Below are positions 14,726 through 59,576 of a DNA stretch of 64,000 nt, one piece after another. The notes beneath the pieces are model-generated. The model had not been told where the DNA came from and did no database searches. It worked only from the letters and a program-made list of their open reading frames with translations. This DNA is from a virus: the IMG/VR virus record IMGVR_UViG_3300048919_000048, positions 87,944 through 151,943 of that record. The stretch is one strand, 5' to 3'. How positions within the stretch are numbered: position 1 is the stretch's first letter; each line of letters begins with the position of its first letter. The translations under genes and the position numbers were made by a program.

Positions 14726-14801
14726 TGGTGGAACTGAACGGATTTGAACCGCCGACGCGATGCTCTTCAGGCAACCGCTCTACCAACTGAGCTACAGTTC
14801 C
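14726..14801 (-). tRNA. tRNA-Phe(GAA)
   Basis: Cloverleaf, loop CTGAAGA, encoded CCA. Confidence 0.93.
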
Positions 14802-14803
14802 AA

Positions 14804-14892
14804 AATAATCAGGGACTTGCGTTACTCCAGTATCGGAATCCACATTGAGTACGCCTACTCAACCCTACTCACATTCAACCGGAGCCTGATTA
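14804..14892 (-). ncRNA. Putative structured ncRNA between tRNAs
   Basis: ATAATCAGG/CCTGATTAT closing stem, CTCC/GGAG, TTGAGTA-cgcc-TACTCAA hairpin. Confidence 0.45.
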
Positions 14893-14898
14893 TCTATT

Positions 14899-14985
14899 TG
14901 GCAGAAGAGGAGAGACTTGAACTCTCAGGCCCCTAGGGACCCCGGATTAGCAGTCCGGTGCGGCTACCAATTTCGCCACTCTTCT
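14899..14985 (-). tRNA. tRNA-Ser(GCT)
   Basis: CCGGA-CTGCTAA-TCCGG, long variable arm, G73-CCA. Confidence 0.93.
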
Positions 14986-14989
14986 AAAT

Positions 14990-15082
14990 TGGCGGAAGAT
15001 AATAGAGTCGAACTATCACCGTGGGGTCGCCACAGCGGGCCGGGGTTCAAATCCGGGTGCGTACCACTACGCCCTATCTTCC
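14990..15082 (-). tRNA. tRNA-Ser(TGA)
   Basis: Loop TTTGAAC, long variable arm, G73-CCA. Confidence 0.9.
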
Positions 15083-15083
15083 A

Positions 15084-15746
15084 TTATTTGATAGAAATCC
15101 AAGCCGTTTTAGTGTTTGTCGGGTAGGTTGAATTTCTGAAAAGTGTAAGAGGTGCTGCGCCAGCTCCACCTTGTGCGTTAACAAAGGCTGAAAGTTGGGC
15201 ATCACTGACGGGCTGGAAAAACACTTCAACTCCGTCCAAGGAAAGATGGATTCCATCGCTTCCCATATAATAAGAGATAAGATGCCAACCCGTCTTTACG
15301 TTTTCCGTCCCGGACATCGGGTTTGCTTGACCATTCCAGCCATAGAAGCAAACCCTTAATTGATCACTTACCAACTTTAGCCCGAAAGACCAATAGTTTA
15401 TACCGGAATTCTGAACCATGAATCCGATCAGGGTGGGGTGGATCTGGTTAGGATAAACATCATTCACCCTATCAACATAAACCATGGCGTCTACCCTTGC
15501 CCCTCTTCGAAAGGCAGATAAGTTTGACCCGTAGTTGTACGAGATGTATCCGTTATTTGATTGAATAACATCGTTACCACCAAACAATGTCTTTGTTACA
15601 CCAGAATAACCTGTTGGAGACCTATTACCAGACAAATCGGGATTCATGCCATTCTGAGCCGAGGCCAAGAACAAGCAAGTCGATGGATCTGGCGGTGGAA
15701 GATACACGCCCGCCGGGCGACCACCAACCATTAGAATTTCGTTCAT
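15084..15746 (-). CDS. LamG/ConA-like lectin-fold protein inserted in tRNA array
   Basis: Start MNEILMV (GAGG RBS); YWSFGL and TGWHLISYY.....HLSLDG match the concanavalin/LamG pattern. Confidence 0.65.
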   Translation of the reverse strand: MNEILMVGGRPAGVYLPPPDPSTCLFLASAQNGMNPDLSGNRSPTGYSGVTKTLFGGNDVIQSNNGYISYNYGSNLSAFRRGARVDAMVYVDRVNDVYPNQIHPTLIGFMVQNSGINYWSFGLKLVSDQLRVCFYGWNGQANPMSGTENVKTGWHLISYYMGSDGIHLSLDGVEVFFQPVSDAQLSAFVNAQGGAGAAPLTLFRNSTYPTNTKTAWISIK

Positions 15747-15759
15747 ACACACCTCGAAT

Positions 15760-15835
15760 TGGGGTGACCTGTGGGACTTGAACCCACGACTGCCCGGTTC
15801 ACAACCGGGGATTCTACCTGCTGAATTAAGGCCAC
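15760..15835 (-). tRNA. tRNA-His(GTG)
   Basis: CCCGG-TTGTGAA-CCGGG, C73-CCA. Confidence 0.93.
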
Positions 15836-15840
15836 ATTTC

Positions 15841-15900
15841 AGTGCTCTCCTGTTGAAGCCATCACAGCGTTGCTGATCCATCATTCAACCCAAAAGCACT
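15841..15900 (-). ncRNA. Putative small structured RNA
   Basis: Nested stems AGTGCT/AGCACT and GTTGAA/TTCAAC. Confidence 0.4.
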
Positions 15901-15906
15901 CAAAAA

Positions 15907-15982
15907 TGGCGGGGGATGGAGGATTCGAACCTCGCGTTAGCGGGATCAAAACCCGCTGTTTTGCCAATTAAACTAATCCCCT
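15907..15982 (-). tRNA. tRNA-Gln(TTG)
   Basis: GCGGG-TTTTGAT-CCCGC, G73-CCA, A1-C72 mismatch. Confidence 0.9.
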
Positions 15983-16022
15983 ACGCTGGGTGAGATAACC
16001 CGATCACCACGGGCAATAAAAT

Positions 16023-16096
16023 TGGAGCGGACATCCGGGATCGAACCGGACTCATTAGCTTGGAAGGCTAAGGCACAACCACTATACCATGCCCGC
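16023..16096 (-). tRNA. tRNA-Gly(TCC)
   Basis: TTAGC-CTTCCAA-GCTAA, U73-CCA. Confidence 0.93.
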
Positions 16097-16102
16097 TTTA
16101 TG

Positions 16103-16180
16103 TGGTACTCCAGGAGAGATTCGAACTCATCACTGACATGATCCTAAATCAAGTGCCTCTACCAATTGGGCTACTGGAGC
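16103..16180 (-). tRNA. tRNA-Leu(TAG), short variable arm
   Basis: Loop TTTAGGA, A73-CCA, 78 nt. Confidence 0.85.
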
Positions 16181-16185
16181 GAAGA

Positions 16186-16260
16186 TGGATGCGGGGGTCG
16201 GATTCGAACCGACGACATGAGGCGTATGAGACCTCCGCGCTACCGCTGGGCCACCCCGCA
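16186..16260 (-). tRNA. tRNA-Met/Ile2(CAT)
   Basis: GAGGT-CTCATAC-GCCTC; lacks initiator hallmarks; atypical U73. Confidence 0.8.
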
Positions 16261-16266
16261 ATAATT

Positions 16267-16343
16267 TGGTCGGTGTACGAGGACTCGAACCTCGGACCTA
16301 ATGCTCCCAAAGCAATCGCTCTACCAAACTGAGCTACACACCG
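16267..16343 (-). tRNA. tRNA-Pro(TGG)
   Basis: Loop TTTGGGA, C1-G72, A73-CCA. Confidence 0.93.
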
Positions 16344-16347
16344 TGTA

Positions 16348-16423
16348 TGGTTGGAGATGGTGGTTTCGAACCACCGACCTGACCCTTATCAAGAGCCTGC
16401 TCTACCAACTGAGCTAATCCCCA
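16348..16423 (-). tRNA. tRNA-Ile(GAT)
   Basis: Loop TTGATAA, CCA end. Confidence 0.92.
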
Positions 16424-16427
16424 AAAG

Positions 16428-16503
16428 TGGCGGTCCTAACGGGATTCGAACCCGCGACTCTCCCGTGACAGGGGAGTATGTTTACCGCTAATACCATAGG
16501 ACC
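16428..16503 (-). tRNA. tRNA-Asp(GTC)
   Basis: CTCCC-CTGTCAC-GGGAG, G73-CCA. Confidence 0.93.
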
Positions 16504-16509
16504 TGAATT

Positions 16510-16616
16510 TGGTTTTGAGATGAGAGTCCGAGTCTTGTACAGCCTTACCCGTTGTCAATTGGCAGCTATCGCGCGATTCGCACTTCCGACACGGGATTTA
16601 ACTGTTACACCTCAAA
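16510..16616 (-). ncRNA. CCA-terminated tRNA-like RNA without anticodon arm
   Basis: 9-bp terminal stem TTTGAGGTG/CATCTCAAA + ACCA; internal ACAGTT/GGCTGT and CCCGT/ACGGG stems. Confidence 0.6.
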
Positions 16617-16618
16617 GA

Positions 16619-16700
16619 TGGCAGGAAGGTGAGGAGTCGAACCCCCGGAGCCGGGGTTGGAACCCGGTGGAGTTCCACAACCCCATTAATCTACCAACCT
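16619..16700 (-). tRNA. tRNA-Trp(CCA), non-canonical D arm
   Basis: CCGGG-TTCCAAC-CCCGG, TTCGA T loop, G73-CCA; two U-U acceptor mismatches. Confidence 0.75.
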
Positions 16701-16706
16701 AAAAAC

Positions 16707-16784
16707 TGGTACACCCAACGGGACTCGAACCCGTATTTGCCGACGTGAAAGGTCGGTGTCCTATTCCAATTAGACGATAGGTGC
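16707..16784 (-). tRNA. tRNA-Glu(TTC)
   Basis: CCGAC-CTTTCAC-GTCGG, CCA end. Confidence 0.93.
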
Positions 16785-16834
16785 TTTTAACGAATAGCCA
16801 TCGAAATGACTATTGATTAATTACACATATTGTT

Positions 16835-16910
16835 TGGCTGACGGTACTGGATTCGAACCAGTTATCCTGGGCTTAACAGGCCCCCGCATGTCCATATATG
16901 CTCACCGTCA
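16835..16910 (-). tRNA. tRNA-Asn(GTT)
   Basis: Loop CTGTTAA, G73-CCA. Confidence 0.9.
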
Positions 16911-16916
16911 ATAATA

Positions 16917-17077
16917 GGGTGCGCCCCTTCCGGTGTGATTACGCAGTTATCGTCGAGGGAACTCGTAAACAGGGACCTTCAGTTGGACGACTTGCGGTTA
17001 GCTAATCCGCTTCCTTTCTTTACCGTGGGCCGCAGGGAATGCAAGCATTTTACCTGAAGATATTTCCACGGTTTACC
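16917..17077 (-). ncRNA. Putative pseudoknotted ncRNA in 3' trailer of tRNA-Lys
   Basis: Several crossing complementary segments (see findings); no ORF. Confidence 0.5.
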
Positions 17078-17154
17078 TGGTGGACCGTCAGGGACTCGAA
17101 CCCCGAACCTCGGGATTAAAAGTCCCTTGCTCTAACCAATTGAGCTAACGATCC
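17078..17154 (-). tRNA. tRNA-Lys(TTT)
   Basis: Loop CTTTTAA, A73-CCA. Confidence 0.93.
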
Positions 17155-17158
17155 GATC

Positions 17159-17253
17159 TGGCAGTAGGAGGGAGATTTGAACTCCCGGGACCAGGGGCTA
17201 CCTGATCCGACACCTTTCCAAGATGCTGCTTTAAGCCACTCAGCCATCCTACT
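17159..17253 (-). tRNA. tRNA-Ser(GGA)
   Basis: Loop TTGGAAA, long variable arm, G73-CCA. Confidence 0.92.
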
Positions 17254-17259
17254 AAAATT

Positions 17260-17347
17260 TGGTGGGGAGTGATGGAGTCGAACCACCCGAGTCGCAATGA
17301 CAACAGATTTACAGTCTGCACCGCTACCTCTACGGAAATAACTCCCC
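17260..17347 (-). tRNA. tRNA-Tyr(GTA)
   Basis: GCAGA-CTGTAAA-TCTGT, long variable arm. Confidence 0.93.
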
Positions 17348-17351
17348 GAAA

Positions 17352-17481
17352 TTCTCTTTTGTTCGGCTCACCTGATATCCATGAGGCTGCGCTACCTCAT
17401 ATAGACCTTATTCGCTGGACCGCCCCGTTGTACACCGTGACTATCTTGCGAGTTCGTTAACAGATGCCCGACAGAAGAGAA
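17352..17481 (-). ncRNA. Putative rod-like ncRNA (~130 nt)
   Basis: Closing stem TTCTCTTCTGT/ACAAAAGAGAA, CGG/CCG, CATCTG/CAGGTG, internal ATGAGG/CCTCAT hairpin. Confidence 0.5.
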
Positions 17482-17514
17482 CTTTAATAAAGGCCCCTAA
17501 TGAGGGCCTTTCAA

Positions 17515-17889
17515 TTACTCATCTTCCCCTACCACTTTATACTCACGAATTTCGGTTGTCAATGGCATAACCGCTTTTAGTTCATCAGATGAACCTGAGT
17601 GAGTCTGGGAGGAGGCAGATGTTGTGCCGCCTGCTGCGTCGTCTTCGTTATCCTCTTCAGTGTAGAGGTTGTTAACCTCTTTCGCCTGCTCAAGGATATA
17701 CTTCGCCGTCGTTTCTTTCACCTTCTCTGTGCCGGAGGTCAGAAGACCTTCGAGAGTGGAGATAGCTTTCGGCGTCAGACGGGCTAATTCGCCTCGGAGA
17801 TTAATCATTGCCTTTTCAAGGGCAATGGCTGTACTCTCCTCTTTGCTTGGGCGACCACGCTTACGAGTTACAATCGCAGCCTTGCTCAT
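17515..17889 (-). CDS. Candidate terminase small subunit / DNA-binding protein
   Basis: RKRGRPSK AT-hook-like motif and PKAISTLEGLL...EKVKETTAKYILE helical pattern; own promoter (17916-17944) and hairpin (17489-17511). Confidence 0.45.
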   Translation of the reverse strand: MSKAAIVTRKRGRPSKEESTAIALEKAMINLRGELARLTPKAISTLEGLLTSGTEKVKETTAKYILEQAKEVNNLYTEEDNEDDAAGGTTSASSQTHSGSSDELKAVMPLTTEIREYKVVGEDE

Positions 17890-17960
17890 AATGCCCCCAT
17901 TGAGTTAGTGTATTCATCTTAGCAGTATAATTACACTATGTCAATAGGTTACATGAAAAT

Positions 17961-18083
17961 TGGCAGCGACTCCAGGATTCGAACCCGAACAGCCCGGCGA
18001 TCAACCCGGGAGCGAAGTACCCTATTGGATAGATGGTCTACTCATGCCTGAGCGATTCCCATTTCTCCTCAACCTCAGTCGCC
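17961..18083 (-). ncRNA. tRNA-like RNA with greatly expanded D region
   Basis: Acceptor GGCGACT/AGTCGCT + G-CCA, canonical TTCGAAT T loop, CCCGG/CCGGG stem with 8-nt loop, ~65-nt insert in place of D arm. Confidence 0.65.
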
Positions 18084-18089
18084 AATGTG

Positions 18090-18169
18090 TGGTGCCCCTC
18101 CCCGGAGTCGAACCGGGAACTCCTGCCGTTTGAAAGCAGAGCCTCTACCTTTTGTTGGGCCAGAGGGGC
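18090..18169 (-). tRNA. tRNA-Leu(CAA), short variable arm
   Basis: CTGCT-TTCAAAC-GGCAG, A73-CCA. Confidence 0.85.
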
Positions 18170-18170
18170 T

Positions 18171-18247
18171 TGGAGCAACGTACTGGATTCGAACCAGTGA
18201 ACACCTCGTTTGCAGCGAGAGCCGTTACCAGACTCCGGCAACGTTGC
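18171..18247 (-). tRNA. tRNA-Cys(GCA)
   Basis: Loop CTGCAAA, U73-CCA. Confidence 0.92.
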
Positions 18248-18253
18248 ATGATC

Positions 18254-18329
18254 TGGTGCTGGATGCAGGGGTCGAACCCGCGACCTTCTGATTACAAATC
18301 AGTTGCTCTACCAACTGAGCTAATCCAGC
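18254..18329 (-). tRNA. tRNA-Thr(TGT)
   Basis: Loop TTTGTAA, CCA end. Confidence 0.93.
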
Positions 18330-50472: not shown

Positions 50473-51106
50473 TAAAAAGGTCACCTTCGGGTGGCCTTTT
50501 TTGTTGCATTGCGCCAGAGGATGTGTATAATGACAACCACTGAAGAGGAGACAACCATGAAATACGACATCTTTTACCGACCAGTGTTCACCAAGAAAGA
50601 ACGGAAACTCTCCGGCTACGAGATGATCGTGTACCCTCATGACTCCCCCCGCCCGGCGGGTGACTTCGACGTTATGACCATCGAGCCTGCGGCGGACAAT
50701 GAGTTCACCCGTTTTGAGAACATGCTCCGTAGTGGGTACGACCCGCTCAGTGATGTTTCTTTTGTTGACAAGCATCCGCTGAATATAATAAGATACCTGC
50801 GTGGTGAGAAAGAAATGCCCAAACGCACGATCGGCTGGGAAAAAGACATTGACCGCTGGTCTGTTAACTTACGAGGGGAGCGAGTATGAGTCATGTAGTA
50901 AGAGATTATCTGTTCGAGGGGTGCCAAATACCCCAGAAATTCATGGATGCGGTATACAGCCCCTCTTGGGACGCAAGAAACATGCGATTCCAAGGGACTG
51001 ATCAGGCAGACTACGGCGAAGCGATCACCGTGCGCATATCGGCAGAGAGCAATGAGACCTTGGACTGGTTCCTCGGCGAATGGACCAACTGGAGAGAGGT
51101 GAAGCA

Positions 51107-52426
51107 GTGAAAATTTATTTGGTTGGCGGGGCAGTCCGCGATGAACTGATGGGTGTGCCAAGCAAGGACCGTGATTACGTGGTTGTTGGCTCAACCCATG
51201 AAGAAATGCTGTCCTTGGGGTTCGGTATGCCGCACGGCGCTGCCTTCCCGGTGTACCTGCACCCGGAGACAAAGGAAGAGTATGCACTGGCACGTAAAGA
51301 GCGCTCTACCGGGGACGGATACCACGATTTCGAAGTTATGTTCAGCCCGGATGTGACCATCGAAGAGGACTTGGCCCGCCGGGACCTGACTATCAATGCG
51401 ATCGCAAAGGATCTGGAGACCGGGGAATACATCGATCCATACGGCGGCATCCGTGACATCCAAAAAGGTGTCCTGAGGAACGTATCAGCGGCAGCGATGC
51501 GTGAAGACCCTCTCCGAATCTACCGACTGGCCCGCTTCCTGGCCCGATTCGGCGGCAAGTTTGTGGTGGACCACTCAACGATGTTCATTTGTGAGAGTGC
51601 AAAAGCGACACTGGCGGCGCTCCCGAAAGAGCGCAAGATGGCGGAGATCCGAAAATGCTTCGAGGACCAGAGCAATGATAACCGACCATCGTTGATGATC
51701 GATATGCTCTGCAATCTCGGCGAGATGCCGGAGGTGGCGAACCTGCGTGGTGCTTTACAGCCTAAATCTCACCACCCAGAGGGCGACGCATACATCCACA
51801 CCCTCCTGTGCCTGGATTACGCCCAACGCATCATGTCGGCCCCGGAAACAAAGTGGGCTGTTCTGTGCCATGACCTCGGTAAAGTTCAGTATTTTGAGTA
51901 CGGAAATCTGCACGGGCACGAGGAGTTCGGTGTTGTATTGGTTGAACAACTGAGTAATCGCTTCGGCGTACCGAACAAATGGGTGGACCTCGCCAAGCGT
52001 GTTTGTGCCGATCACACCCGTCTGCACCGGATCATGGATCTGAAGCCACGCAAGGTGTTTGAGTTGATTGAGCGTATCAAGGCTCATAAGCCGGACGAAA
52101 ATCACTTTGCCTTGAAGTTTATGGAGGCTTGCCTGTGTGATGCACGGGGCCGTGGCCCAGAGAAAATGTTTGACATCTACGATCAGCCTCATGTATTATG
52201 GGCCTGTGCTGTGGAGTTGCACAAGAACCGACTGGAAATCTCTGAGAAAAGCAAAGAGATCTCCGCCCGGCTGGCAGGTCGTCGTGAATTAATCTCTTCA
52301 GAGATCAAAGCGATGAAAGTAAAATACGTTGCCCGCGCCCTTGTCAGGGTAAAGGCAGAACTTAAAAAATTAAGAGAGGAGGAAGGTTATGACGATTCCA
52401 ATTTACCTACTTGGCGTCTGTATTAG
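51107..52426 (+). CDS. cca: tRNA nucleotidyltransferase (CCA-adding) with HD domain
   Basis: YLVGGAVRD, DRD, DLARRDLTINA, EDPLR..R.ARF, HPEGD, LCHDLGK. Confidence 0.92.
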   Translation: MKIYLVGGAVRDELMGVPSKDRDYVVVGSTHEEMLSLGFGMPHGAAFPVYLHPETKEEYALARKERSTGDGYHDFEVMFSPDVTIEEDLARRDLTINAIAKDLETGEYIDPYGGIRDIQKGVLRNVSAAAMREDPLRIYRLARFLARFGGKFVVDHSTMFICESAKATLAALPKERKMAEIRKCFEDQSNDNRPSLMIDMLCNLGEMPEVANLRGALQPKSHHPEGDAYIHTLLCLDYAQRIMSAPETKWAVLCHDLGKVQYFEYGNLHGHEEFGVVLVEQLSNRFGVPNKWVDLAKRVCADHTRLHRIMDLKPRKVFELIERIKAHKPDENHFALKFMEACLCDARGRGPEKMFDIYDQPHVLWACAVELHKNRLEISEKSKEISARLAGRRELISSEIKAMKVKYVARALVRVKAELKKLREEEGYDDSNLPTWRLY

Positions 52427-53803
52427 TGCGGTTGTGTGGTTCTTGGGAATCAAGATTCGCCAACGTGGGTATTACCTGCCAATGCCTCGTAAGTATGATG
52501 GCAATCTACTTGACCCGCTTGACAAGCCGGAGCGTATCGACTGGACACTCCTGATGCTTGGCTGGTTTATCATATCTGTGGCGTGGCCTTTCTGTTGGAC
52601 GGTGCTGATCCTGTTCTATGTTGTGTCGTGGGTAGTAACCATCTGCGGCTGGGTATGGGAGAAGACTCTCGGCAACGAAAAGTTCGCTCATAAAATTTTC
52701 GGGGTAAAAGGAGAGTAACATGTTTGCATTTGTGCGTGAGTTTGTTGATACCGTTTTCAGTTTCTGTTCCCTACCGTGGGTGTGGGTTCCGTTGGGTGTC
52801 CTGACGTGGGTGGGGACAATCTATCTATTCGCTAAGAATTCCTCCCCTTACGAGCGAGAGTTCCACATTGCTGTCGGGGCAGTTCTCGGGGTGATCTTCG
52901 GGTTTATCGCCCCGGGTGTTGTGGCATTTTCTCCAATCATCTTGGCCTTTGTTGCCGTCATCATGCTGATAGTTTTGGCTGGTGCCGGAGTGGCTAAACT
53001 TCTGGGGGTGGACGAGTGAAAGTATCCGAACTGATATCTGAGTTGCAGAAATGCAACCCGGAAGACAAAGTGGCGGTGCAGATCGACAAAGGCTTCGTGA
53101 CGATCGGCGGTACACCACGTGTCGGGGTAGAGTCTGCCCACAACGGGTTCGACTGGGACCACGGGACTGTCTTCTTGAAGCTGGAAGGCGGAAAAATGTT
53201 GACAGACATTTCTCGTGAAGAGTATACTGAGCATATCCGATACAAACAGTTGGTCAGCGGCCTTCGTGGCAAGCAGGACATTGAGCATTTGTCGAATATT
53301 TTCGTGAAAAAGGACTTCGTGATCAATCGACTTCTGCGACTGGTCAACGTCGAAGAACTTGAACCGTTCGAGGTCTCAGACCTCATTACTGATATTAGAG
53401 AGGAGCGTTTATAATGTTGGCACCAATGTGGCAGTATTTCACGATGATGATCATGTTCTCCCTGGCCTTTGTCTTAAATATTATCGGGGTGGCGGCGGTT
53501 GTCTTTGCAGACCGTAAAATAATGACCAGTGGGAATTACGACACGGCGTTCGGCCTGTTCTTCCGTGTTGTTGTGTCAGGCATTATGATGTACGCTTCCT
53601 ACTCCCTGTTCCAGTGGTACACCGGACCTCTTGGCTTAGGAATTTTGTTGGTACACTGGGCATCGGTCATCTCAACCTTCCTGTACTCCCTGAGCATTTC
53701 AGGCCGTAAGGTAGAGTACACCTTAGGGAAGGCACTTTGGGGCGCTCTGTACACAGGCGGCATGGTGATCTCGTTGATCGTGTATGGCCTGTCATGTCTT
53801 TAA
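52389..53803 (+). other. Cluster of four small ORFs, three of them membrane proteins (52389-52718, 52720-53019, 53414-53803)
   Basis: Multiple hydrophobic segments; coupled starts. Confidence 0.6.
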
Positions 53804-53890
53804 CCAAAGACTGTACCAACTGCGATAACTTCATCCGGGTTAAAAAGCCCGGATGGGTAGGTCTGTGTGATTTGCACGATTGGAGGATTA

Positions 53891-55015
53891 ATGGAAAATA
53901 CCATTGTGGCAAGTGGAAGGGTAAAAAGCATCGTAGAGAAGCTGGAAAGTCACAAAGACGTATCGAAGGTGCTGATGTTATGTCTCGCCGGATCTCATGC
54001 GTATGGGACGGCGACTCCGACTAGCGATACCGATATCCGTGGCATCATCGTGGCCCGCCCGGGAGTAATCCGGGCACCGTTCCGAACCCTGCGTGAGATG
54101 GGGATTGAGGACGAGGAGGACGGCAAGGTTTACGAACTGAACAACTTCATGGAATTGTTCTGCGACATGAACCCGAACATCATCGAACTGGGATTCACCG
54201 ATGACCAGGCGACGCTGTATAAGCACCCGGCTTGGGACTATTTAAGGTCCTTCCTGCCACAACTGCTTAACAAGAACGTTGCGTTCCGTTTCGGCGGCTA
54301 TGCCATGGCGCAGTTGAAACGCATCAAAGGCCACAACAAGCATATCAACAACCCTATGCCGGAGGCCAAGCCTACCCAACTGGAGTTTTTCCGCTTGGTG
54401 CAGAGCTATCTCGACGTGAAGGTGTTTAAGCATGAAGACTTTATGCGTAAACTGAACAACATGGAAGGCATTTGCACCTTGGTGCCGTTCGGTGCGGATA
54501 TCTACGGCGTTGTACCGGACCACCGTGAAAATGTTGGCCCGATGTTCAACCCGGATGGCTCGATCCGTAAGTTGCAGTACGACGAGATCCCGGAGTCTGT
54601 GAAAAAGCAGCCTCCTTTGTTCATCGTTAAGTATCTGAGGCAGGATCACATGGTTGCCAAGGATAAGCACCACAACTACTGGCAGTGGGTGAAGAACCGT
54701 AACGCCGCCCGGCACGAACTGGAAGAGAAGTTCGGTTACGACACCAAACATGCCATGCACTTGGTGCGACTGCTACGAATGGGGGAGGAAATCCTGGAGA
54801 CCGGGCAGGTTATCGTCCGCCGACCTGACGCAGATGAACTGCTCGGCATCCGCAACGGGACCCACAGCTACGATGATATCGTGGAATGGGCGTCCGACAA
54901 GGACAAACTGATCCGTGACGTTCTCTACCGCGAGAGTAAGTTGCCGAAGAACAGCAACAAGCGATTGGCGGAAGAACTGATCCTCAACGTCCAGGATGCC
55001 GCATGGGAAAAATGA
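53891..55015 (+). CDS. Pol-beta superfamily nucleotidyltransferase (RlaP/YcgL-like)
   Basis: GSHAYG.....SDTD.RG, NPNIIE, YDTKHAMHLVRL. Confidence 0.85.
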   Translation: MENTIVASGRVKSIVEKLESHKDVSKVLMLCLAGSHAYGTATPTSDTDIRGIIVARPGVIRAPFRTLREMGIEDEEDGKVYELNNFMELFCDMNPNIIELGFTDDQATLYKHPAWDYLRSFLPQLLNKNVAFRFGGYAMAQLKRIKGHNKHINNPMPEAKPTQLEFFRLVQSYLDVKVFKHEDFMRKLNNMEGICTLVPFGADIYGVVPDHRENVGPMFNPDGSIRKLQYDEIPESVKKQPPLFIVKYLRQDHMVAKDKHHNYWQWVKNRNAARHELEEKFGYDTKHAMHLVRLLRMGEEILETGQVIVRRPDADELLGIRNGTHSYDDIVEWASDKDKLIRDVLYRESKLPKNSNKRLAEELILNVQDAAWEK

Positions 55016-55503
55016 CGAACGGAAGAATGGCATATCTTCTGTCTGTCGATACACACCGGGCCAAAAGCCCGGTTATCTCTTGGATAGAAGAAAACATCCG
55101 GACAGGGAAGGCTAACCCGGATTACGGGACGGCGTGTGCAGAAGTTATTCAAGAAGTTACTATCCGTTTGGTTGAAAACGTGGACTACGAGGTTGAAGAC
55201 GGAAAGGTGATCAGTGTCATCACGGGCTGGAAGTCAACACCTTATTTTGAGAACCCGTCAAAACCAACTAAACAAGAGATTGACTTGCTGGAAATATGCG
55301 AGCATAATCATTTTATCTGGCTGAGAGGCATGTGCTTTGAGATCCTCGATATGCTGGACCACCCTCACTCATGTTCCATTGACTATCACATTATGGAAGA
55401 GGAGTGCAGCGGACCCGGGTGTGAGAGAACAGGGCCAGTAAACTACCACGGGGGTAGAAGCTGGCAATATTATTGTGGTGGCGGGCCGCGCTGCTGCCCA
55501 TAG
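55012..55503 (+). CDS. Hypothetical protein with Cys-rich C-terminus
   Basis: CSGPGC...YYCGGGPRCCP; ATGA-coupled. Confidence 0.6.
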   Translation: MTNGRMAYLLSVDTHRAKSPVISWIEENIRTGKANPDYGTACAEVIQEVTIRLVENVDYEVEDGKVISVITGWKSTPYFENPSKPTKQEIDLLEICEHNHFIWLRGMCFEILDMLDHPHSCSIDYHIMEEECSGPGCERTGPVNYHGGRSWQYYCGGGPRCCP

Positions 55504-55511
55504 GAGAAGAG

Positions 55512-56009
55512 ATGAGCAAAACTATCGCCAATATCCTCCACGAGGTTAAAAATCGTGGTGAATTGAACATCATCACTCTTGAAAAATTCAAGGTGCGTGG
55601 ACAGTTTGGTAACAAGTTCCAAGCTTTAACGCCAAGTGATTACAACGACTTCGACGCATTCACTTTCGAAAAGGGGCTGTACGTCCGTTACAACGGTGGG
55701 TGGTACGACGGGACAAACCATCCGATGAGTCCATTCCCTGAGTGGAGAGACAGCCTTAATGCAGGATACCACCTGAAGAAGATCGAGAAGAGAAACTACG
55801 GGTCCTTCGGAAAGATAATGGAAGAGCTTGAAGAGTTGAACGATGCTCATGAACAGGGGAGCAAGATCATGCAACTGGTCGAACTTTCCGATCTGTACGG
55901 TGCGATCGAAGGCTACCTGCAAGAGCGATTCCCGGGTATGGAGATGCATGACCTCAAAAAATTCTCCGACATAACTAAGCGGGCGTTCAAAAACGGGCAC
56001 AGGGGGTAA
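55512..56009 (+). CDS. MazG-like all-alpha NTP pyrophosphatase
   Basis: KIMEELEEL..A...VELSDL.GAI acidic motif pair. Confidence 0.6.
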   Translation: MSKTIANILHEVKNRGELNIITLEKFKVRGQFGNKFQALTPSDYNDFDAFTFEKGLYVRYNGGWYDGTNHPMSPFPEWRDSLNAGYHLKKIEKRNYGSFGKIMEELEELNDAHEQGSKIMQLVELSDLYGAIEGYLQERFPGMEMHDLKKFSDITKRAFKNGHRG

Positions 56010-56010
56010 A

Positions 56011-56604
56011 ATGAAATATCCAATCAGCGCTGAAGTAATTATGGATGCGTATGCGTGGTGGTCACGTTGGTTTCGTGCCAAAAGGGTGCCGGGCTTGGTT
56101 GACCCGGATGTGATGGCGCACACCTGCCCGCCGGACGTACACGATGATCGGCTATACGGGGCCGGGGCGGATACGGTCGTCGCATCAGCGGAGCAGTCTT
56201 TCATCCAACTGGATAAGGACGGGGAATTGGCACCTGGTAGCTGGATGGCATTGACACCGTGCTATCGTGACGAACCCGTTCTCGACGAAGTACACCTGCC
56301 AGTGTTTCTGAAGCTGGAACTGATCCGTTTGAGCGACGAAAAGAATTTCTATACCCGTTCCGATGCCATGTGGCTGGCTGGGGAAATGCAGAAGTTCTTC
56401 AGCGAGTTCTACGGGATGCCGACTGAACTCGTAGAAACGATGGATGGGTTCGATGTCATGTATGACGGTCTGGAACTTGGATCGTTCGGAGTCAGGCGGA
56501 CCATGACCGGAAAATCGTATGTTTATGGCACCGGATTAGCCGAGCCGAGAGCATCGATCGCACTGATGCGTTTCCAGCAAAAATGTGAAAGCACTTTTGA
56601 CTAA
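56011..56604 (+). CDS. Minimal class II aminoacyl-tRNA synthetase (SerRS-like) catalytic core
   Basis: Motif 1 VPGLVDPDVMAHT, SAE, motif 2 PCYRDE...F.KLE, ELGS, motif 3 GTGLAEPR. Confidence 0.7.
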   Translation: MKYPISAEVIMDAYAWWSRWFRAKRVPGLVDPDVMAHTCPPDVHDDRLYGAGADTVVASAEQSFIQLDKDGELAPGSWMALTPCYRDEPVLDEVHLPVFLKLELIRLSDEKNFYTRSDAMWLAGEMQKFFSEFYGMPTELVETMDGFDVMYDGLELGSFGVRRTMTGKSYVYGTGLAEPRASIALMRFQQKCESTFD

Positions 56605-56809
56605 AAATTCATTGCAAGGTTATGCCTATTGACCAGATCCCGACGATAGGCATTTTCGATGTATTAAAATCTATTTTACGGATTTAAATGTGAAACGGAG
56701 ATTTTGTTGTGTAAAATGACAACACGCCCTCTTTGTCAATAGTTTTCTGTTGTATTTTTGCATAACATGGTAAAATGGTTGTGCGGAATCTTACAACGGG
56801 AGGAAGGCT

Positions 56810-57253: not shown

Positions 57254-57300
57254 TCGGGTCGATCGTCGAAAGGCGGTCGGCCTTTCTTTTTGGAGGTAAT

Positions 57301-57708
57301 ATGAACGCAGGGTTGACCATAAAGGGGACGGTTGCAAGCGTACATGGCCTGCCATGCCCTCCCCAGGCAGTATGCGCTGGCGATACATATATCGTGGGTT
57401 CTGACCTCTATGCCTGGGACGGTCGTCAATGGAACTGGGTGGGTCCAATATCTGGCCCAACAGGTGGTTGGTCGGCGATGAAACAATACACCTTGACCTA
57501 CAACGGCGTTTCTGCAACAATTTGGTCGTCGAACGAAATAACATCCCTGTTCTTTGACCCAGAGAACCTTGATATGGATGATTTGGCGATATTTGAGACG
57601 ACGTACCCTGAAGATTACAAAGCCTTCGAGGCGGAATGGTCGGAGAACAGAGCAAGACAATTGGCATCTGATGAACTGAACGTGTGGAGAGACAAATATG
57701 TCAAGTAG
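57301..57708 (+). CDS. Fibre-knob + YPEE-family protein
   Basis: N-terminus matches knob repeat of 3495-6776; C-terminal FETTYPEDY. Confidence 0.65.
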   Translation: MNAGLTIKGTVASVHGLPCPPQAVCAGDTYIVGSDLYAWDGRQWNWVGPISGPTGGWSAMKQYTLTYNGVSATIWSSNEITSLFFDPENLDMDDLAIFETTYPEDYKAFEAEWSENRARQLASDELNVWRDKYVK

Positions 57709-58225
57709 AACAAGATACAATTTTAACCCAGACCATCTCCCGATTGGTTTGAGGTATCTCGGAGAGGTGCAGTCAGTAACAAATCTCCCAAATGATCCTA
57801 TGGTCGGTGACGTTGTGTATGCAAGGGACCAGCAAAGAGCTTTTGCTTGGGTGGGTGTAAACTGGTCAAACTTGGTATTGAGGCATTCCAGCCCTCAAAT
57901 ATCGCACGGTCTTGGTGGAGAGATACAGTGTATTCAACCGCCCCCTGTGTATGTTACCGATGGGCTTATGACCCATCAGAACAAATTGACTTACCGGGGG
58001 ATATCGTTTACCATCGAGTCTGAACACAACATAGCCGAGATGTTTTTGCAACAGCATAATCTAACCAAGCAAGACATGGGCATGTTCAAGATGATGTACC
58101 CTGAGGAATTCAAACAGTTCCGAGAGGGGTGGGCACACAGATGGGCGATCGAAAGAGCCAAAGAAGAATTTGACGAATGGGAGTTAGACTACTATGAGAA
58201 AAAGCCAAGAAGAGATTACCCGTGA
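57698..58225 (+). CDS. Fibre-knob + YPEE-family protein
   Basis: GLRYLGEV....LP....GD....AFAWVGVNW; FKMMYPEEF. Confidence 0.65.
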   Translation: MSSRTRYNFNPDHLPIGLRYLGEVQSVTNLPNDPMVGDVVYARDQQRAFAWVGVNWSNLVLRHSSPQISHGLGGEIQCIQPPPVYVTDGLMTHQNKLTYRGISFTIESEHNIAEMFLQQHNLTKQDMGMFKMMYPEEFKQFREGWAHRWAIERAKEEFDEWELDYYEKKPRRDYP

Positions 58226-58700
58226 GGTGTTTGGACAAGGTTCCCGCTGGATCGGCTGGAACCATTGGCTAACTCATCAGCTTGTTTTCAAATATATTTG
58301 GAACAAGGTTGAGCAAGGAACGATCCTTGGTAGCCGGGCATCCTTTTACCTCAGAACCAGGACGGAGTCTAACTGGGCCACCAAAGATATGATAAAAGTC
58401 AATATCGACAACCAAACTGGAGACCTGTCAAGTGTCGAGATCCCCGGTGGGGACGGAAAATCACGGCTAACGGTAATGGCAAACTGCTCTGTATGGTTAG
58501 ACTCTGACGGGGTATCGGTAACCCTATCGGAGATGTTCGAGGACCCATGGCGACCAACGTTCGAAGAGTTGGATCTTTTCCAAGTTTTGTACGGCGATGA
58601 GCAGATCCTTATTGATATCAACCGTGAATTTTTCGGAATCACCAGGAAGTTTGATAAGGCGGTTGGGAATATGACGATCAGCACGTTCTACCCTAAATAA
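58194..58700 (+). CDS. Hypothetical, divergent YPEE-family motif
   Basis: EMFED...EELDLFQVLYG. Confidence 0.55.
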   Translation: MRKSQEEITREVFGQGSRWIGWNHWLTHQLVFKYIWNKVEQGTILGSRASFYLRTRTESNWATKDMIKVNIDNQTGDLSSVEIPGGDGKSRLTVMANCSVWLDSDGVSVTLSEMFEDPWRPTFEELDLFQVLYGDEQILIDINREFFGITRKFDKAVGNMTISTFYPK

Positions 58701-58710
58701 TTGGAGGTTT

Positions 58711-59182
58711 GATGAGCGAAATCAAAGATGTAATAGAGAGGTTGGCTAAAGACTGGAGTTGGGACTCGGTGATTAATCACCCTACCCGCCGCCATATCAT
58801 TACCACACTGGAGGGAAAACTCCGGGGATTGGGCATTGAGGTCCCTACCGGGCCGAATACCCACCGTGAGTTCACCATGCGTCACGAAAAGAAAAATGGG
58901 GACCTCCGCCTGTGGACCAAGAGCATGAGTGGACTGCTCCAGTGGAGAACCGACCCAGAGAAGGGTGATCGCCTTGTGTATCACCCATTTGGACGTGGCG
59001 GCACAGAGCGCCTGAAGATCGAGGAGATCTTCATGGACACCCACGATGTGGATGAGGGAGAAGTGGCCCTGTTCGAGATGCTGTACTCAGATCTTTCACC
59101 GATGGTGCCATTGTTTGCGGGCGCTCTCGACGAAGCTGACCGTTTATTGAAGGAGAAATATGGTGATCCAAAAGCAAATTGA
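58711..59182 (+). CDS. Hypothetical, divergent YPEE-family motif
   Basis: EIFMD...EVALFEMLYS; GGAGG RBS; ORF track frame 58709..59182. Confidence 0.55.
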
Positions 59183-59576
59183 GTCTATGCAGAGGGCCGA
59201 GCAAATTCGGGCGCAACTTATGGCAAATATGTTTAGTGCAGACAGTGGCGTAATGGGGGTTAATGGTATGATGGGACCGGGGCCGGGACCTCAAGGTCCG
59301 AGGGGAGAACCAGGGACTCCGGGTATTGAAAGGGAAAAATACATCCTTCGCTATGCTGGCCTGCCCTTCGAAATCTGGCTGAAGCCTGGTACTTTTGCCA
59401 TGATCGAAGACGCGACCGAGGTTAACGGCGATGACCTTGAATTCATCAAGATGATGGATAAGGATGAATGGGAGAAGATCCGCGAGACGTGGTGTTTAGA
59501 ATGGCATAAGCGCCGGGGGCACCGGGCTTTTGAGGCGGGCCTCTACGAAGAGTTTGAAGCAGGGGTGGTATTATGA
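59160..59576 (+). CDS. Short collagen + YPEE-family protein
   Basis: GPQGPRGEPGTPG then LRYAGLPFEI...DLEFIKMMDKDEWEKIRETW. Confidence 0.65.
   Translation: MVIQKQIESMQRAEQIRAQLMANMFSADSGVMGVNGMMGPGPGPQGPRGEPGTPGIEREKYILRYAGLPFEIWLKPGTFAMIEDATEVNGDDLEFIKMMDKDEWEKIRETWCLEWHKRRGHRAFEAGLYEEFEAGVVL

Follow-up and report, generated by a model that had tools for sequence, protein, structure and literature searches.

A miniature SerRS-like class II core and its HisE/MazG-like partner domain: a putative two-part adenylate-forming enzyme of large phages

The DNA considered here, called the window throughout, is a stretch of 64,000 nucleotides from the IMG/VR virus record IMGVR_UViG_3300048919_000048 (positions 87,944 to 151,943), and the region is that of a Certrevirus-like myophage of the Vequintavirinae. 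Two adjacent genes on its + strand encode a protein of 197 aa that resembles the catalytic domain of seryl-tRNA synthetase (SerRS), here called the core, and, directly upstream, a protein whose C-terminal domain, here called the partner, resembles the all-alpha pyrophosphohydrolases HisE and MazG. The pair, an enzyme module that belongs among the truncated paralogues of the aminoacyl-tRNA synthetases (aaRS), is genuine and widespread, carries wrong labels in databases, and no functional study of it was found. It is probably an active adenylate-forming enzyme in which the core works as a unit with the MazG-like domain, and on balance we favor a two-part enzyme that makes seryl-adenylate for a non-canonical acceptor, by preference the 3' end of RNA or tRNA. 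The features of the two genes are as follows.

55512-55757, + strand: N-terminal 82-aa extra domain of the MazG-like open reading frame (ORF), no fold assigned
55758-56009, + strand: HisE/MazG-like all-alpha domain of 83 aa, the partner of the core (phrog_6408)
56011-56604, + strand: mini SerRS-like class II catalytic core, 197 aa (phrog_4806)

Fold and kinship of the core

An initial annotation, made from the letters of the window alone, had noted class II aaRS motifs with a SerRS flavor in the core, a description borne out by sequence profiles, hhalign, a model made with AlphaFold2 (AF2), Foldseek and an exhaustive VIA search. The quoted motifs are all found in the 197-aa protein: VPGLVDPDVMAHT at residues 26-38, SAE at 59-61, PCYRDE at 83-88, ELGS at 155-158 and GTGLAEPR at 173-180. 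When a profile of the core family (alignment A1, built from 36 relatives with a mean column identity of 30%) was compared with the PDB, the 17 best matches were all SerRS, with the enzyme of Aquifex in first place (6e-7); pyrrolysyl-tRNA synthetase (PylRS) came next at about 0.01, and histidyl-tRNA synthetase (HisRS) was absent from the 39 matches listed. With hhalign, the core aligns with residues 185-324 of E. coli SerS at a probability of 93.6% (E 2e-7). The AF2 model has a predicted local distance difference test (pLDDT) score of 93, and Foldseek of this model, a check that the annotation had proposed, returned the class II fold, with the catalytic domains of PylRS and SerRS matched at E values of 1e-9 to 1e-8. 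The VIA search placed human mitochondrial SerRS at the top (Z 18.4, 192 of the 197 core residues aligned), followed in this family by other SerRS at Z 15.4-16.7, the SerRS alignments spanning 190-193 of the 197 residues; the further folds found were HisRS and HisZ (Z about 14-17), Bll0957, a ligase of the amino acid:carrier protein type (aa:CP; 15.9), PylRS and SepRS (15.2), and the class IIb paralogues AsnA (13.0) and GenX (12.2).

Curated models do not reach the core. It has no Pfam match at E values up to 0.1 and no NCBIfam match at E values up to 1, so the SerRS thresholds of Pfam tRNA-synt_2b and NCBIfam serS are missed, and its relatives appear as sub-threshold class II matches; a single-sequence phmmer search of the PDB gave nothing meaningful. 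The PHROG assignment is phrog_4806 (2e-75), which bears the label 'histidyl tRNA synthetase'. Judged by its sequence, however, the core is not a HisRS, its likeness to that enzyme being one of fold only.

The match to SerRS is confined to the catalytic domain, from SerS residue 185 onward. The N-terminal coiled-coil arm is absent, as the initial annotation had remarked, and no N-terminal tRNA-binding domain was found in the ORFs neighboring the core. At the other end, the protein stops 17 residues past motif 3 and is without a C-terminal anticodon-binding domain of the HisRS type. A search for fused forms of the core longer than 448 aa, with the range of 345-448 aa outside the search, found none, which is weak evidence. 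The family is large (clustered at 50% identity, it forms at least 1,646 clusters). From its sequence and predicted structure, the core is classed as a truncated class II paralogue closest to bacterial-type SerRS.

The core active site

Core residues were mapped onto E. coli SerS by combining HMMER and hhalign alignments and, for the C-terminal part, a local alignment. The equivalents obtained are:

S59 and E61 of the core: T237 and E239 of SerS
R86 and E88 of the core: R268 and E270 of SerS
F99 of the core: F287 of SerS
K101 and E103 of the core: K289 and E291 of SerS
E155 and S158 of the core: E355 and S358 of SerS
T174 of the core: S391 of SerS
R180 of the core: R397 of SerS

Across 256 diverse relatives, many of which stand for clusters made at 50% identity, all mapped positions except E88 are 99-100% conserved; at E88, 222 relatives have E, 28 have D and 6 have another residue. 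In particular, the equivalents of the motif-2 Arg, the motif-3 Arg, the adenine-stacking Phe and the metal-site Glu and Ser are kept in 255 or 256 of the 256, as are those of the SerRS-type pocket (S59/E61, E103 and T174), and the motif-1 residue Pro27 is conserved in the family. The active site thus looks intact, which argues for catalysis by the core and agrees with the earlier description of a truncated class II paralogue, rather than a canonical synthetase, in which the equivalents of the adenylation site are conserved.

The motif-2 loop is where the core departs from SerRS. It has 10 residues in the core versus 16 in E. coli SerS, and it contains on average 0.6 Arg or Lys in the core family versus three Arg in SerS, with a nearly invariant Asp and His instead. 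Because the core has both this short loop, poor in Arg and Lys, and no arm for tRNA-Ser, it would not work as a normal SerRS. Net charge and isoelectric point (pI) were also considered as a clue and dropped: core and partner have a median pI of about 5, but E. coli SerRS is equally acidic.

Linkage and fusion of core and partner

Co-occurrence of the core with the MazG-like gene, which the initial annotation had put forward as a check, was surveyed in two samples. The first consisted of 80 diverse loci on viral contigs, many of them contigs of jumbo phages of 200-600 kb, with a core relative of 32-92% identity; the second held one genome per species for 185,579 prokaryotic species. Linkage is conserved in both. 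The partner is found at 76 of the 80 viral loci, once as a fusion and otherwise as a same-strand neighbor whose gene usually overlaps that of the core at the start and stop codons; one of the four loci without it lies at a contig end. The prokaryotic species yielded only 26 core loci, all but one (a 775-bp contig) on contigs of metagenome-assembled genomes (MAGs), and the partner is present at 24 of these and fused in 9. Viral and MAG loci together have the partner adjacent or fused in 100 of 106 cases, which places the association of core and partner among the tightest measurable two-gene associations.

Similar counts emerge from a collection of 50,697 phage genomes, in which the core occurs in 271 records and the partner, counted by tblastn, in 267, at one copy per record. 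The core and partner counts by host genus are 112 and 113 for Escherichia, 61 and 59 for Acinetobacter, 13 and 13 for Caulobacter, and 10 and 10 for Pectobacterium. Annotated pairs include gp197/gp196 of phi92, orf119/118 of the Acinetobacter phage Lazarus, gp132/gp133 of CcrColossus, the pair of Pseudoalteromonas PH357 and the fused ORF131 of the Microcystis phage Ma-LMM01. The core is essentially restricted to large phages.

The natural fusions carry a further regularity. In 10 of 10, the motif-3 Arg and the invariant Tyr-His of the partner are separated by 11-13 residues, and this constant spacing points to a fixed geometry of the two domains. Clustering of the neighboring ORFs revealed no third family in more than 11 of the 80 loci. 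Zinc-knuckle ORFs lie beside the pair at 12% versus 6% (Fisher p 0.0035, for loci that are not independent), and zinc-finger ORFs were dropped as a general third partner because this enrichment is weak. In Pectobacterium phage PcCB7V (locus L001, 8045-8967), an insertion of about 1 kb with two ORFs separates the MazG-like gene from the core. A 13-kb contig (locus L120; 1-1313 and 3501-4612) carries a tandem MazG-like protein and a core, and a few genes away lies a histidine kinase of the bacterial HWE type that has dCache and PAS domains. Such a setting may represent a cellular or prophage context for a pair otherwise confined to phages. On a viral contig of about 94 kb, a 463-aa ORF (L057, 5830-7221) lies directly downstream of the pair, and its N-terminus, judged by eye, resembles class I methionyl-tRNA synthetase.

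The HisE/MazG-like partner domain

The partner domain, which makes up the last 83 residues of the ORF ahead of the core, corresponds to phrog_6408 (4e-41). An alignment of 28 diverse homologues has a mean column identity of 52%, compared with 30% for the core, and twelve positions are invariant in it: Y4, H5, K19, E22, E23, E26, Q33, E42, D45, T73, F77 and R82. These include the EExxE...ExxD pattern of the all-alpha NTP pyrophosphohydrolases. The AF2 model (pLDDT 93) consists of three helices. On the whole, the partner is probably a pyrophosphohydrolase-type domain of the HisE/MazG kind.

The domain shares its helical fold and the EExxE...ExxD motif with HisE and MazG (PDB 2a7w, 1yvw, 1y6x, 3cra, 1vmg). 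It differs from them in having only 83 aa and three predicted helices, in never matching at Pfam thresholds, in possessing its own invariant G-Y-H near the N-terminus and T..RAF..G.R near the C-terminus, and in traveling with a class II core rather than standing alone.

The 82-aa extra domain that precedes the partner in the window has no Pfam match. The nearest Certrevirus relatives (phiTE, CR3, PBES 02 and PcCB7V) lack it, their MazG-like gene encoding 86-93 aa, and it is present in A7_1, in phages of the pEp_SNUABM_01 type and in other Vequintavirinae-like phages, as part of proteins of 164-167 aa (including P0257-P0265). A MazG superfamily pyrophosphatase has been described in the RNA-repair neighborhood of rV5-type phages (PMC9503650); it could not be equated with the partner. 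The ten upstream ORFs scanned (39.9-50.5 kb) and the ORFs scanned around the gene block included neither a sirtuin nor an RNA ligase.

Proposed function

In the mechanism that we propose, the core and the partner would be the two halves of one phage-specific enzyme. The core would take up ATP together with serine, or with a near analogue of serine, to form the aminoacyl-adenylate, while the HisE/MazG-like half would sit physically on the core and either handle the nucleoside-triphosphate/pyrophosphate side of the reaction or hydrolyze the triphosphate form of the substrate or product. The activated serine would then be passed, by way of variable add-on domains, to the 3' end of an RNA, most plausibly the acceptor end of a tRNA. 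The steps differ in firmness. Physical contact of core and partner is something we infer from their pairing and fusion. Serine or a near analogue is the likely amino acid, given the SerRS-type pocket residues, and the RNA or tRNA 3' end is proposed tentatively as the acceptor. In this phage, the pair shares a tRNA-maintenance block with a CCA-adding enzyme and an RlaP-family nucleotidyltransferase.

The add-on domains vary from lineage to lineage. The core of CcrColossus carries the C-terminal domain of the RNA polymerase alpha subunit, a helix-hairpin-helix (HhH) fold (PF03118, 3e-6, 27.3 bits versus a cut-off of 23.8); in phi92, a gene resembling YqeY and the GatB tail lies directly downstream (PF09424, 5e-7, 30.3 bits versus 27); and cores of several lineages end in tails that resemble zinc ribbons. 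The partner, for its part, is found fused to a DEDD 3'-5' exonuclease domain (PF03104, 4e-11) and to an ASCH/DUF3850 domain (6e-25), and it also occurs as tandem duplications (MZ-MZ). For the exonuclease, MZ-X427 and tandem MZ-MZ fusions, a core gene confirmed by hidden Markov model lies beside the fusion or within about 750 bp of it. The HhH, YqeY, exonuclease, ASCH and zinc-ribbon domains lean toward a polynucleotide substrate.

A bolder version of this mechanism would have core and partner share one composite active site, with the partner supplying in trans the pyrophosphate/Mg handling lost from the motif-2 loop. The result would be a naturally minimal, 'urzyme-like' class II synthetase of about 270 residues that serylates RNA 3' ends or tRNA acceptor ends without identity elements, to protect, repair or reprogram tRNAs attacked by host defenses. 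We consider this improbable.

Weighing the alternatives

Several observations weigh against an enzyme that serylates RNA. No tRNA-specific recognition element was identified, and the known members of the MazG and HisE groups act on free nucleotides, which favors a small-molecule substrate. By analogy with the T. thermophilus SerRS-seryl-adenylate structures, the mapped core residues are presumed to hold ATP and Mg as well as serine, the latter by its amino and hydroxyl groups. The identity of the partner is itself less secure than that of the core: the Pfam family PRA-PH (HisE) is found in 22 of the 28 members, each time below threshold (best E 5e-4); the top three Foldseek matches, to HisE (2a7w and 1yvw) and E. 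coli MazG, have probabilities of 0.91-0.97 but E values of about 0.4; the VIA scores (Z 5-6, up to 6.4) lie among those of generic helical proteins; and the profile of the partner alignment returned only coiled-coil noise from the PDB. The term 'MazG-like' used in the initial annotation is nevertheless probably right. Outside the Vequintavirinae, the pair is found in unrelated contexts, often near genes for replication or nucleotide metabolism. A search of the literature on the pair found no functional paper, only genome notes with the SerRS label.

Some fusions of the partner point the same way. One joins it to a radical-SAM-like domain, sub-threshold and with a CxxxCxxC motif; the overlapping 194-aa gene downstream is probably the core. 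Another, represented by 28 protein clusters on jumbo-phage contigs, joins it to a cupin-like domain of about 190 aa with an invariant FGLG, an H-D-H-R and a later His (H56, H58 and H130). This domain could not be identified with PDB profiles or Pfam, one member matching Cupin_2 at 0.026 and the Atlas TM-score being 0.44, and it is possibly a metal-binding cupin, whose H-D-H motif may resemble that of cupins of the cysteine-dioxygenase type. A small-molecule substrate is favored by the cupin-like and radical-SAM fusions together with the preference of the superfamily for free nucleotides. Each accessory fusion, whichever way it leans, may be a single evolutionary accident. Cupin-like fusions in alignment A3 include:

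L025, 4046-4951: cupin-like fusion of the partner
L034, 4127-4954: cupin-like fusion of the partner
L045, 3737-4555: cupin-like fusion of the partner

These observations would fit a small-molecule pathway, in which the core would serylate a free nucleotide or nucleoside, the MazG/HisE-like enzyme would convert the triphosphate to the monophosphate, and the product would serve as a signal, decoy or inhibitor for host takeover or counter-defense. Aminoacyl-nucleoside antibiotic pathways follow the same logic in pairing an NTP pyrophosphatase with an amino-acid ligase. The characterized MazG and HisE enzymes act on free (d)NTPs or phosphoribosyl-ATP (PR-ATP), and the partner keeps the acidic motif and the invariant Lys and Arg; its fusion partners of the cupin and radical-SAM kinds are typical of small-molecule chemistry, the pair often lies among nucleotide-metabolism genes, and tRNA-recognition domains are all absent. 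The exonuclease, ASCH, HhH and YqeY add-ons, however, point to polynucleotides, the cupin assignment is weak, and a review of aaRS paralogues (PMC9437257) names none that acylates a free nucleotide. A free nucleotide is ranked second as acceptor, behind the RNA or tRNA 3' end, and the small-molecule pathway as a whole is judged unlikely. The label used in genome papers and GenBank implies instead a canonical phage SerRS that charges tRNA-Ser to boost translation. In its favor are the intact equivalents of the SerRS-type active site and the tRNA cluster of the window (14726-18329, - strand), which has 18 genes, three of them for tRNA-Ser that would be among its substrates; serine is the sole amino acid with three isoacceptor genes (GCU, UGA and GGA), all with long variable arms. 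The whole N-terminal tRNA-Ser-binding domain is missing, however, although the arm of that domain makes a critical contact with tRNA-Ser at its variable arm (PMC8821087); the shortened motif-2 loop has few Arg or Lys, no Pfam or NCBIfam SerRS model is matched at threshold, and the canonical reaction offers no role for a MazG-like subunit that is nearly obligate. Such an enzyme is quite improbable.

Modification of a protein, in the manner of EpmA/GenX or the aa:CP ligases, would require a target thiol or amine, here that of the Cys-rich protein encoded two genes upstream of the core. A relative with 43% core identity has a Cys tail, CGGSPRCCP, fused to its core, zinc- or Cys-rich tails recur on other cores, and the fold is like that of Bll0957 (Z 15.9). 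These tails resemble zinc ribbons more than acceptor sites, though; the Cys-rich protein is found at only 4 of the 80 loci, zinc-knuckle ORFs are weakly enriched, no carrier-protein or PP-binding domain was found among the neighbors in the window or in the related loci examined, and the S-A-E motif occupies the relevant position with no zinc ligand apparent. This reading is very improbable. Least probable of all is a paralogue that is not catalytic or has a regulatory role, in the manner of HisZ or SLIMP, or a literal HisRS as in the PHROG label. The fold scores of HisRS and HisZ (Z 15.8-16.8) do nearly equal those of SerRS, and the partner resembles HisE, a histidine-pathway protein. However, the active-site equivalents are kept almost without exception (255 or 256 of 256 for the motif-2 Arg, the motif-3 Arg, the Phe and the Glu and Ser), SerRS makes up the 17 best profile matches with no HisRS among the 39 listed, and no HisG or other histidine-pathway genes lie nearby.

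Comparison with known enzymes and labels

Truncated synthetase paralogues have repeatedly given rise to new chemistry, such as lysylation of elongation factor P (EF-P), carrier-protein loading and asparagine synthesis, and EpmA/GenX and AsnA use the aminoacyl-adenylate on a non-canonical acceptor. The core resembles EpmA/GenX (PoxA) and AsnA in being a stand-alone class II domain, with fold scores of Z 12.2 and 13.0, respectively. Unlike the core, these proteins derive from LysRS and AspRS (class IIb), have 300-330 aa and are without a MazG-like partner. With bacterial SerRS (E. coli SerS; PDB 2dq3, 6h9x, 1ser and 7u2a), the core has in common its catalytic fold (Z 15.4-18.4) and the motifs TPC-F/Y-R-x-E, F-x-K-x-E, E-x-x-S and G-S/T-G-L-A-x-x-R. 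It differs in having less than half the size and no N-terminal coiled-coil, a motif-2 loop shorter by 6 residues with few basic residues, trimmed insertions between motifs 2 and 3, and the HisE/MazG-like partner. Of the natural class II cores whose active site is fully conserved, it is one of the smallest, and once its substrate is worked out it would offer the minimal-synthetase field a natural counterpart to engineered ones.

A further parallel is with the aa:CP ligases, which have been described as truncated SerRS homologues (Mocibob et al. 2010, cited in PMC9437257). Like Bll0957 (PDB 3mey), the core is a SerRS-like domain without a tRNA-binding domain. The aa:CP ligases, however, come from the methanogen-type, zinc-dependent SerRS, have about 300 aa and are encoded beside carrier proteins (PMC9437257), whereas the core has the bacterial-type S-A-E (the zinc site being judged by motif), about 190 aa and a MazG/HisE-like neighbor. 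The paralogues of SerRS named in this review, which dates from 2022 and covers those of the aaRS, are SerRS2, SLIMP and the aa:CP ligases, with no phage or MazG-linked form, and the combination of such a core with a pyrophosphatase-like subunit is absent from its catalogue (PMC9437257).

The gene itself is not new to databases: PHROG 4806 and many GenBank records label it a histidyl- or seryl-tRNA synthetase. In Citromicrobium phage RXM, g121 bears the SerRS label and lies beside MazG genes (PMC8953757), and a comparison of jumbo phages treats RlaP, CCA enzymes and MazG separately rather than this pair (PMC7824862). Identification of the substrate would correct a systematic misannotation as 'histidyl/seryl-tRNA synthetase' in hundreds of phage genomes, and might bring to light a new way in which phages deal with the pools of tRNA or nucleotides.

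The surrounding gene block

Over positions 53800-56700 of the window, identity with the Cronobacter phages PBES 02, CR3 and CR8 and with the Pectobacterium phages phiTE, CB7 and PcCB7V is 83-87%, and the stretch is present mostly in DNA runs of root and soil metagenomes. Besides the pair, the block contains the following genes.

51080-52426, + strand: CCA-adding tRNA nucleotidyltransferase with an HD domain (PF01743, phrog_2244)
53867-55015, + strand: RlaP-family Pol-beta nucleotidyltransferase, 382 aa (PF10127, phrog_388)
55003-55503, + strand: Cys-rich protein, 166 aa (phrog_12113)

The four ORFs from RlaP to the core are tightly packed on the + strand, with the core 1 nt after the MazG-like gene, and their coordinates agree with those given earlier. 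The Cys-rich ORF overlaps the preceding RlaP ORF by 13 nt. The MazG-like ORF is open from the TTG at 55473 and ends at 56009; its start is likely the ATG at 55512, which follows a putative GGAGAAG ribosome-binding site and lies 8 nt past the previous stop. The ATG of the core (56011) comes 1 nt past the TAA of the MazG-like ORF (56007-56009). There is no terminator-like site in the interior of the block, the first strong one being at 57256-57283.

The GS/DxD nucleotidyltransferase recognized in the initial annotation proved to be RlaP. It matches PF10127 at 1.1e-16 (61.8 bits versus a cut-off of 23) and phrog_388 at 1e-85, and its Pol-beta motif consists of G-S at residues 42-43 and D-T-D at 55-57. 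According to a preprint, RlaP repairs damaged 3' ends of RNA by the addition of one or two nucleotides and thereby contributes to the recovery of tRNA function (bioRxiv 10.64898/2025.12.29.696909). The Cys-rich protein has 8 Cys, ends in CGGGPRCCP and matches phrog_12113 at 1.5e-114, its C-terminal part also matching the small phrogs 19749 and 14060; it is probably a zinc-binding module, and a search of the ESM Atlas with it gave no usable match. In P0069/P0070, the core itself ends in a similar fused tail, CGGSPRCCP.

The order of the block recurs in relatives. Phage A7_1, with a core 49% identical, keeps the gene order, with the CCA enzyme followed by RlaP, a 162-aa ORF, a MazG-like ORF of 167 aa and finally the core, and a contig of about 151 kb (L089, core 43% identical) has RlaP, then the MazG-like gene, then a core with the CGGSPRCCP tail. 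The CCA enzyme (PF01743 at 1.4e-19, HD at 1.9e-8, phrog_2244 at 3e-140) is at the same position in PcCB7V, A7_1 and L089. Across the viral sample, however, RlaP lies within 5 kb of the pair at only 5 of the 80 loci, and was rejected as a general partner on this count; the Cys-rich ORF is near the pair at 4 of the 80. These two genes are lineage-specific associates, the block being kept only within the Vequintavirinae, and the earlier proposal that the four genes form one pathway is not supported as a general one.

In PcCB7V, a peptidyl-tRNA hydrolase gene (L001, 4450-4905) lies between the CCA enzyme and RlaP; RlaP, the CCA enzyme and this hydrolase suggest tRNA maintenance as the local theme. 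At that site the window has small ORFs resembling membrane proteins instead. Four small overlapping + strand ORFs fill 52389-53803, between the CCA enzyme and RlaP, and three of them look like membrane proteins by their hydrophobic stretches; the ORF at 53016-53414 is phrog_12566, function unassigned. Downstream of the block, five consecutive + strand ORFs occupy 57301-59576:

57301-57708, + strand: ORF whose N-terminus weakly matches tail-fiber PHROGs
57698-58225, + strand: second ORF of the series
58194-58700, + strand: third ORF of the series
58709-59182, + strand: fourth ORF of the series
59160-59576, + strand: fifth ORF of the series

Their N-termini differ, and they have in common a C-terminal acidic motif, D-L/M-x-x-F-x-x-x-Y-P/G/S-E/D.

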